Shown: positions 16,041 to 16,227 of the stretch, in pieces
Layout of the letters: every line of letters starts with the position of its first letter
Numbering within the stretch: position 1 is the first letter of the stretch
Virus record (IMG/VR): IMGVR_UViG_3300014770_000007
Coordinates: 1-39,589 of that record
Source of the DNA: a virus
Taxonomy: Duplodnaviria; Heunggongvirae; Uroviricota; Caudoviricetes
Direction: 5' to 3' (one strand)
DNA: 39,589 nucleotides
Program-made: the position numbers and the translations under genes
The notes under the pieces: model-generated
Database searches by the model: none
Told to the model about the DNA's origin: nothing
Seen by the model: only the letters and a program-made list of their open reading frames with translations

Positions 16041-16128
16041 TTATGTTTTCTATGTCATCTATAAAAAGATAATAAAAAGAATAAGATAGAGAGGGGTTGG
16101 TCAAAAAATAAACATGACGAAATCTATG
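16041..16128. repeat. conserved ~90-bp intergenic block, copy 1
   Basis: ~90% identical to 32951-33040 (tatgttttctatgtYatctatRaaaagataataaaaagaataagatagRgaRgggttggtYaaaaaRtaaacatgacgaaatctatg). Confidence 0.8.
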
Positions 16129-16141
16129 AATCTATGATCTA

Positions 16142-16162
16142 CTAATACAGAACGTGTATTAG
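16142..16162. promoter_or_regulatory. palindromic operator-like site
   Basis: ctaatacaGAACGtgtattag, perfect 8-bp inverted arms. Confidence 0.5.
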
Positions 16163-16202
16163 CTGCAACTCAAAATCATGAAACCTATGTAAAACCATGT
16201 GT

Positions 16203-16227
16203 AGCTAATACAGAACGTGTATTAGCT
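16203..16227. promoter_or_regulatory. palindromic operator-like site (25-bp perfect palindrome)
   Basis: agctaatacaGAACGtgtattagct; centre 63 bp from the first copy; ends 19 bp upstream of the -35 of P2. Confidence 0.55.

Follow-up and report, generated by a model that had tools for sequence, protein, structure and literature searches.

The two perfect palindromes that lie between a pair of divergent promoters in the DNA analysed here (39,589 nt, hereafter the window) are, as genome comparison suggests, probably operators of a phage regulator encoded at 33209-33985, which would control its own gene and also modulate the rightward of the two promoters, P2. The element they form is regulatory, real and familiar in kind, although the protein family behind it is unannotated, and the comparative support for the putative pairing of sites with protein is unusually clean.

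The window is part of a 9NA-like (Nonanavirus/Sashavirus) siphophage of E. coli. Over the 2.5 kb around the palindromes it is 95-96% identical to the Escherichia phages vB_EcoS_AVIO78A, PDP46 and KarinMuster_Bas82, and the Salmonella phages 9NA, Sasha, Sergei, Solent and SP069, together with a group of Klebsiella phages, are more distant relatives. 9NA has been described as virulent, with the pac-site headful packaging used by 9NA-like phages and with many small genes scattered among its virion genes, and the virulent group as a whole has been described as being without lysogeny genes. Genomics and packaging of 9NA-like phages are reportedly treated by Zeng et al. 2019 (J Virol), who are said to have mapped packaging in 9NA and Sasha. 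These phages are candidates for biocontrol of Salmonella, E. coli and Klebsiella. There has been essentially no study of how their genes are regulated, and nearly all their small genes are annotated as hypothetical.

Palindromic sites in two intergenic control regions

Region 1 is the intergenic region that holds both palindromes. The same 19-bp core, TAATACAGAACGTGTATTA (TAATACA-GAACG-TGTATTA), is present at 16143-16161 in O1 (16142-16162, CTAATACA-GAACG-TGTATTAG) and at 16206-16224 in O2 (16203-16227, AGCTAATACA-GAACG-TGTATTAGCT), where the symmetry extends to a 25-bp palindrome, AGCTAATACAGAACGTGTATTAGCT. The preliminary description had placed both palindromes at these positions with their centres 63 bp apart, and our coordinates agree; it had further read this spacing as about six helical turns, a phasing that is not conserved, the distance being 60-70 bp in relatives.

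Palindromy by itself is not evidence, since perfect palindromes with 7-bp arms are not enriched (29 in the window against ~26 in Markov shuffles); what stands above chance, and where the significance lies, is the recurrence and clustering of the sites. The site family TARTRCA-N5-TGYAYTA has nine matches in the window at up to two mismatches, against 2.2 expected, and none of 100 shuffles reached nine. Two matches are in region 1 and seven in a second intergenic region (region 2, 32736-33149), which separates the small terminase gene terS (32025-32660, minus strand) from the plus-strand gene 33209-33985; there are none elsewhere in the window. In the relative Bas82, whose locus spans ~19 kb absent from the window, all nine of nine family matches fall in its region 2, and neither those ~19 kb nor the replication and lysis genes contain any.

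Region 2 opens on the terS side with two sites, TAATACA-ATGTT-AGTATTA (32736-32754) and TAGTGCA-CAACA-TGCACTA (32765-32783), followed by a site at 32901-32919 (TAATACA-CTATA-TGCACTA) and by an operator array at 33054-33072, 33075-33093, 33107-33125 and 33131-33149, with a half-site, TGCACTAGCT, at 33150-33159. Four or five sites are thereby set 21-32 bp apart beside a conserved AT-rich block. Half-sites in this region vary independently of each other (TAATACA, for instance, is paired with TGCACTA), which breaks hairpin pairing and fits half-sites read by a protein rather than an RNA or DNA hairpin.

Among six close relatives, ~90% identical across region 1, the arms of the palindromes are kept and the central 5 bp vary. 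At the two centres (16150-16154 and 16213-16217) GAACG and its reverse complement CGTTC replace one another, independently at O1 and O2, a flip that, from these sequences, looks like palindrome-mediated inversion rather than point mutation. Arm sequence is thus maintained while centre orientation is irrelevant, as expected for the site of a symmetric dimer. On their left side most sites have a GTTWCAG(M)T-like flank, which occurs with all specificity types (window, 9NA, Klebsiella; examples are at 32728-32738, 32893-32903 and 33123-33133, and on the minus strand at 16159-16169), so that the sites are not purely symmetric; the conserved central domain of the 33209-33985 product might be what recognises it.

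The divergent promoters flanking the palindromes, leftward P1 and rightward P2, had been proposed in the preliminary description, and both proved to be genuine members of a promoter family, TTAAAATAATTCTTGACGGATTACA (repeat families D1/D2/D18), with ten copies in the window: eight on the plus strand (at 16234, 20131, 21903, 24125, 27573, 29343, 30957 and 31445) and two on the minus strand (15924-15952 and 38251-38279). The ten are near-identical (TTAAAATAATTCTTGAC-GGATTACA, with a 17-18-nt spacer and a weak -10), share a conserved GATTACA just 3' of the -35, and for the most part precede small plus-strand gene cassettes inserted among minus-strand virion genes. P2 (16233-16274, plus strand) consists of an UP-like element, TTTAAAATAATTC, a -35 TTGACG (16246-16251), a 17-nt spacer and a -10 TATCTT (16269-16274); its hexamers come from the promoter scan, all promoters here being predictions from sequence, and it is conserved in distant relatives. 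The first gene of its cassette (16321-16704, plus strand) encodes 127 aa assigned to PHROG 4334. Cassette content varies among relatives, and PJ16 and BDX09P1 have different sequence downstream of P2. P1 (15907-15952, minus strand; -35 TTGACG at 15930-15935, -10 TACCCT at 15907-15912, UP-like element at ~15936-15950), with hexamers read from the sequence, is invariant in close relatives. The DUF723-like gene 15529-15876 (minus strand) is driven by this predicted promoter; gene and promoter occur in the E. coli clade only. 9NA, Sasha and the Klebsiella phages have neither, so region 1 acquired P1 recently.

Neither O1 nor O2 overlaps a promoter core, and a regulatory effect is therefore not obvious from position. 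The centre of O1 is ~83 bp from the core of the AT-rich block, ~93 bp from the -35 of P2 and ~129 bp upstream of the predicted P2 start. O2 is centred 30.5 bp upstream of the same -35, at about -66 from the predicted start and beside the UP-like element; it had been described as ending just upstream of the -35, which is the case, with a gap of 18 nt rather than 19. Every relative examined has exactly two region-1 sites at matching offsets, whatever their sequence. Across site types the first site keeps its centre at 82.5-83.5 bp from the core of the block and at 90.5-93.5 bp from the -35 of P2, and the second site floats (at a spacing of 60, 63, 69 or 70 bp) and always abuts or overlaps the UP-like element. 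In the O1-O2 spacer (16163-16202) the columns CA.CT.AA.A..ATG.AA.C.ATG are invariant in an alignment with distant relatives, and the promoter scan found no convincing promoter inside it.

Sites in region 2 also adjoin predicted promoters. A terS promoter with a -35 TGGACA at 32712-32717 (minus strand) is predicted from its conservation in 9NA and the Klebsiella phages. In the window clade the two terS-side sites (32736-32783) are just upstream of it; in 9NA and a Klebsiella phage the putative terS promoter and the terS ribosome-binding site have a resident-type site between them, which is a transcriptional position. A predicted promoter of the regulator gene (33149-33177, plus strand: TTGCAC at 33149-33154, 17 nt, TATGAT at 33172-33177) was recognised by reading the sequence and scores 8 of 12, below the threshold of the scanner; half-sites overlap it, and the arrangement in Sergei is alike. 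A terminator-like palindrome (33990-34010) comes after the regulator gene; in Sergei, a terminator is annotated at the equivalent place.

It is highly improbable that the repeats are without function, having spread by recombination between similar intergenic regions or existing as RNA-level hairpins. Such an account could draw on the homogenised appearance of the AT-rich blocks in the window clade (90% identity, against a much weaker similarity of region 1 to region 2 in 9NA and the Klebsiella phages), on genomes described below in which region-1 sites are dispensable, and on the inversion of the central 5 bp. It is at odds, however, with the persistence of two sites in position in every lineage despite complete sequence turnover, and with arms that are conserved while spacers vary. 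For hairpins in particular, the imperfect region-2 palindromes do not keep pairing, a scan of the whole window gave no Rfam family at the gathering threshold, and the block folded no better than shuffles as RNA from either strand (z about 0); and since P1 and P2 point away from the sites, transcripts from either promoter probably do not include them.

Site types and the putative recognition domain of the 33209-33985 protein

Three helix-turn-helix (HTH) proteins of the phage had been put forward as possible binders, and the product of 33209-33985 is the one that our analysis upholds: the sequence of the sites co-varies with its N-terminal HTH, and it models, tentatively, as XRE/Cro-type HTH domains. 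The gene (plus strand) encodes 258 aa assigned to PHROG 25538 (unknown function), with no Pfam family. A variable N-terminal, putatively XRE-like HTH (residues ~14-57) is followed by a conserved central HTH domain, also putatively XRE-like (~75-180), an (EAPVARV)x5 linker and a small C-terminal helical domain. AlphaFold, from an alignment of seven sequences, gave confident N-terminal, central and C-terminal helical domains with disordered linkers between them. From these models we read the protein as two tandem XRE/Cro-like HTH domains, with structural scores that are modest. Its top structural matches were Aca7, Aca10, Aca2 and Aca1, and the proteins matching its fold are transcription regulators; Foldseek against the PDB returned no significant match.

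Word-index and exhaustive HMMER searches detected no homologues outside the 9NA-like phages, other matches involving only the low-complexity linker, and a search of IMG/VR loci for wider homologues yielded close relatives only. The linker is encoded by perfect 21-bp tandem repeats (33764-33868), of which there are ~10 copies in Sergei, 3 in BDX09P1 and none in 9NA, and which are annotated in Sasha and Sergei as a 'direct tandem repeat region'. In the homologue of the Klebsiella phage VLCpiS10a (locus L022, 1198-2133) the conserved central domain is duplicated, which suggests, from its sequence, a protein with three HTH-like modules.

A homologous gene lies beside region 2 in all the phages compared. 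The N-terminal ~60 residues of the homologues differ by type, in contrast to a conserved centre and C-terminus. There are five types of HTH and, paired with them, five types of site; only in region 1 of BDX09P1, Sasha and Sergei does the pairing break down. Each phage has numerous sites of the type proper to it in its region 2 (at least seven in 9NA, several in a Klebsiella phage). In the window clade the HTH and the sites of both regions are of the window type, TARTRCA-N5-TGYAYTA. In 9NA, whose protein is 42% identical overall with the N-terminus most divergent, both regions carry the 9NA type, TAACAC-N3-GTGTTA, the region-1 sites being TAACAC-ACC-GTGTTA. VLCpiS10a likewise matches throughout, with an HTH and sites in both regions of the Klebsiella type (CTTACCA-N3-TGGTAAG / TTACCAGANNTGTA; in region 1, TTACCAGATCTGTA and CTTACCA-AAC-TGGTAAG).

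Two genomes in particular show the dyad sites tracking the recognition domain. SP069 encodes a full-length protein of a third type as well as a stand-alone 69-aa HTH of the 9NA type, and it has sites of both types in region 2 and one of each in region 1, where its sequence is at first Sasha-like and, from a point between the two sites, 9NA-like. In SP069 (locus L021, 281-490, KC139651.1) and in SP062 this 69-aa gene is directly upstream of the full-length regulator gene, and the additional HTH matches the mixed site types of their control regions. BDX09P1 is ~91% identical to the window over 32690-33039 and ~90% over 33429-34019, and divergent over 33040-33428. What has been exchanged coincides exactly with the operator array, the promoter and the initial ~73 codons of the gene. 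The new segment encodes a fifth HTH type and brings new ACTA-N3-TAGT / ACTATGAYAGGAT sites beside the gene; the site at the 32901 position has also been converted to the new type (ACTA-CTC-TAGT), and two window-type sites remain near terS. Natural swaps of this kind, of N-terminal domain together with operators, are ready-made variants for engineering orthogonal repressor/operator pairs.

Region 1 of BDX09P1 is of the window type and mismatches its new HTH. The N-terminus of the Sergei protein equals that of the window at 59 of 60 residues, and its region 2 is of the window type; its region 1, as in Sasha, carries sites of the SP069/Klebsiella type (TWACCAGATATGTA), although the sole HTH copy of Sasha and Sergei is of the window type. 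Because of these mismatches the pairing is not universal, and occupancy of region 1 is probably not needed for phage viability. The mismatches look like products of mosaic recombination.

The two other HTH proteins fitted less well. We consider it very unlikely that the NinH-like (Fis-like) product of 18975-19169, a gene 2.8 kb away, or a host factor is what binds the palindromes of region 1. NinH variants do track the region-1 site types in both mismatch cases, with a NinH 100% identical to that of the window beside window-type sites in BDX09P1 and a 59% identical one beside different sites in Sasha and Sergei, but simple linkage within a mosaic block would give the same pattern. SP069 has a Sasha-type NinH but one 9NA-type region-1 site, Sasha and Sergei keep up to ten window-type region-2 sites despite a non-window NinH, and the new region-2 sites of BDX09P1 arose without a change in NinH. 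The NinH-like protein consequently fits worse than the 33209 product, and the existence of five site types, each specific to particular phages, is not something a host factor can account for. The HTH protein encoded at 35601-35936 fits poorly because 9NA, Sasha, SP069 and VLCpiS10a keep the two-site architecture and the gene was not found in 9NA, Sasha, SP069 or the records of 9NA-like Klebsiella phages.

A further candidate for the specificity determinant, the ParB-like protein (gene 37432-38199), was rejected: its 9NA counterpart is 90% identical and has the same HTH region, and the sites there are entirely different. The window thus resembles systems under KorB/ParB global regulators in having a ParB-like gene and palindromic sites at more than one locus, but differs in that its sites do not follow the ParB-like protein.

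The AT-rich block, replication and packaging

Beside the palindromes, the preliminary description had noted a block at 16041-16128 that recurs at ~90% identity. Recurrence and identity both held, and the block is slightly longer: 16029-16128 (plus strand) is 90% identical over 100 bp to a paralogous copy at 32941-33040 (plus strand; repeat family D4). The block is made up of ATCTATR/TTCTATG short repeats, an A-tract core, TCTATAAAAAGATAATAAAAAGAATAAGATAGAGA, and then GGTCAAAAAATAAACATGACGAAATCTATG, and nine of the ten window matches to ATCTATR are in regions 1 and 2. Its core is conserved in 9NA, Sasha, Sergei, SP069 and the Klebsiella phages. In 9NA, SP069 and the Klebsiella phages the two copies have only the short repeats and the A-rich core in common, so the 90% identity within the clade probably results from homogenisation between the regions. 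The first downstream site follows the block core at ~83 bp in both regions alike, and we propose that block and operators together are parts of a duplicated control module. Possible ligands of the block are the conserved central HTH of the 33209-33985 product, TerS or a host nucleoid protein, and its conserved ATCTATR part could be TerS-related. A candidate sigma-70 promoter within the block (TAAACA-18-TATGAT, 16109-16138) was set aside as weak and as not conserved in region 2 or in distant relatives.

The block also bears on a different reading, which we hold to be unlikely: that each region, sites and AT-rich block together, is a replication origin or origin-like element, and that the 33209-33985 protein is the origin-binding initiator of this twin module. 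At lambda ori with O and at SPP1 oriL/oriR with G38P, clustered binding sites stand beside an AT-rich segment, and the O-binding iterons of lambda are palindromic and next to an AT-rich stretch. SPP1 has two origin modules in one genome, and the O/ori types of lambdoid phages show covariation of binding domain and site. In the window, the blocks overlap the second (region 1) and third most AT-rich 80-bp stretches of the window, at 20% GC, and repeated sites adjoin them as at an iteron origin, most densely in region 2; two copies of the module are present; and the protein recalls lambda O in outline, in that its DNA-binding N-terminus is variable, its linker flexible and its C-terminus conserved. 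Origin function would explain the clustering, the duplication and the AT-rich block, for which the operator reading does not account; the fixed distance of the block from the first site also speaks for it. The covariation itself does not discriminate between operator and origin, since initiator and origin specificities also co-vary in lambdoid phages.

What does speak against origins is, first, the fold of the protein, which belongs to no recognised replication-initiator family (no Pfam; PHROG 25538) and in which no similarity to known initiators was detected. Secondly, the modules sit among packaging and head genes, distant from the replication genes. Thirdly, site placement is promoter-centred. 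DnaA boxes and the IHF consensus were found in neither region, and GC skew, as an indicator of an origin, tracked only gene orientation and transcription. The preliminary description had left the choice between the operator array of a dimeric regulator and an iteron or origin region. The comparative evidence supports the former, because the sites hold their position in all relatives while their sequence changes with the N-terminal HTH of the 33209-33985 homologue, and it weakens the latter. Should the origin reading be true, the same data would locate the replication origins of the 9NA-like phage group.

A role in packaging is, like binding by NinH, very unlikely. The repeats would then be pac or terminase-assembly sites read by TerS, which the protein encoded next to it might assist. 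Region 2 abuts terS in phages that package headfuls from a pac site; some pac sites typically combine short repeats with bent AT-rich DNA, and the short repeats and AT-rich DNA seen here recall them. A second pac-like module inside the head-gene region would, however, have no obvious purpose, and TerS had to be rejected as the specificity determinant: the window and 9NA versions are 87% identical and nearly the same in their N-terminal region, and the palindromes of the two share no sequence.

A proposed regulatory circuit and its relation to known systems

Under autoregulation by the 33209-33985 protein, the reading that we prefer, the protein would be made from a sigma-70-type promoter buried in the region-2 array, and because that predicted promoter is surrounded by sites of its own type the protein probably represses itself. 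As it accumulates, dimers would also occupy O1 and O2 in region 1. O2 would abut the AT-rich, UP-like element of the strong P2, with O1 ~60-70 bp further upstream, and P2, with its variable cassette of small accessory genes, would be dampened either by interference with upstream RNA-polymerase contacts or by cooperative binding at O1 and O2; the sign of this effect is a guess. In this way the regulator may act on neighbouring promoters as well as on its own in region 2. We infer from sequence comparison that the protein actually binds its sites, and the same holds for the sign of regulation and for which promoter is its main target.

A more elaborate proposal, to which we give only a small chance, casts the family as a bipartite tandem-HTH regulator whose swappable N-terminal recognition domain moves with its operator array between near-identical virulent phages. 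Its conserved central HTH would read the GTTWCAG flank, or the ATCTATR/AT-rich block at the fixed 83 bp, and the duplicated module would co-ordinate the terS and head-region promoters; in a related version the two modules would be paired origins under one protein. If true, this would mean immunity-like specificity groups within a lytic phage lineage.

A literature search for a described system with this arrangement of sites and regulator returned nothing relevant. The XRE Cro/CI repressors (lambda OR/OL, P22 C2, N15 Cro) are similar in several respects: HTH domains that tentatively model as XRE-like, palindromic sites of 15-19 bp around a centre of 3-5 bp, operator arrays at two loci far apart with sites over the regulator's own predicted promoter, and specificity types that differ between close relatives. 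In contrast to those systems, the present group is described as virulent and devoid of lysogeny genes, the protein has tandem HTH-like domains with a repeat linker and no Pfam family, in region 1 the sites stay upstream of the promoter core instead of covering it, and each operator set adjoins a conserved AT-rich block. Aca autorepressors supply the top structural matches and a parallel in function, as a small HTH protein would damp a very strong accessory-gene promoter. Aca genes, however, are themselves part of the operon under their repression, with inverted repeats placed over its promoter, whereas here the regulator gene is apart from the P2 cassette, 17 kb from P2, the region-1 sites are upstream of the -35, and the cassette has no known anti-defence function.

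The pairing proposed here gives PHROG 25538, a protein peculiar to this phage family, a function that can be tested, with likely binding sites in five specificity types. It also offers a way into the control that a virulent siphophage exerts over its regulator gene, over terS and over one of the many strong promoters of its accessory genes.

Two other repeats were noted. Identical 21-mers, GAGGAATCAAACAATGACTAA, at 20194-20214 and 20357-20377, 163 bp apart, look like a duplication of the ribosome-binding site and start of small genes that are neighbours. The motif ACCCGTGGKTA has 8 matches in the window against 1.1 expected, just upstream of terS (32701-32711, minus strand), terL (27543-27553, minus strand) and the regulator gene (33180-33190, plus strand), with others at 20717, 22158 and 26177 (minus strand); in 9NA, Sasha and the Klebsiella phages it is also found upstream of the region-1 head-gene cluster, and it could be a late-promoter or leader element.
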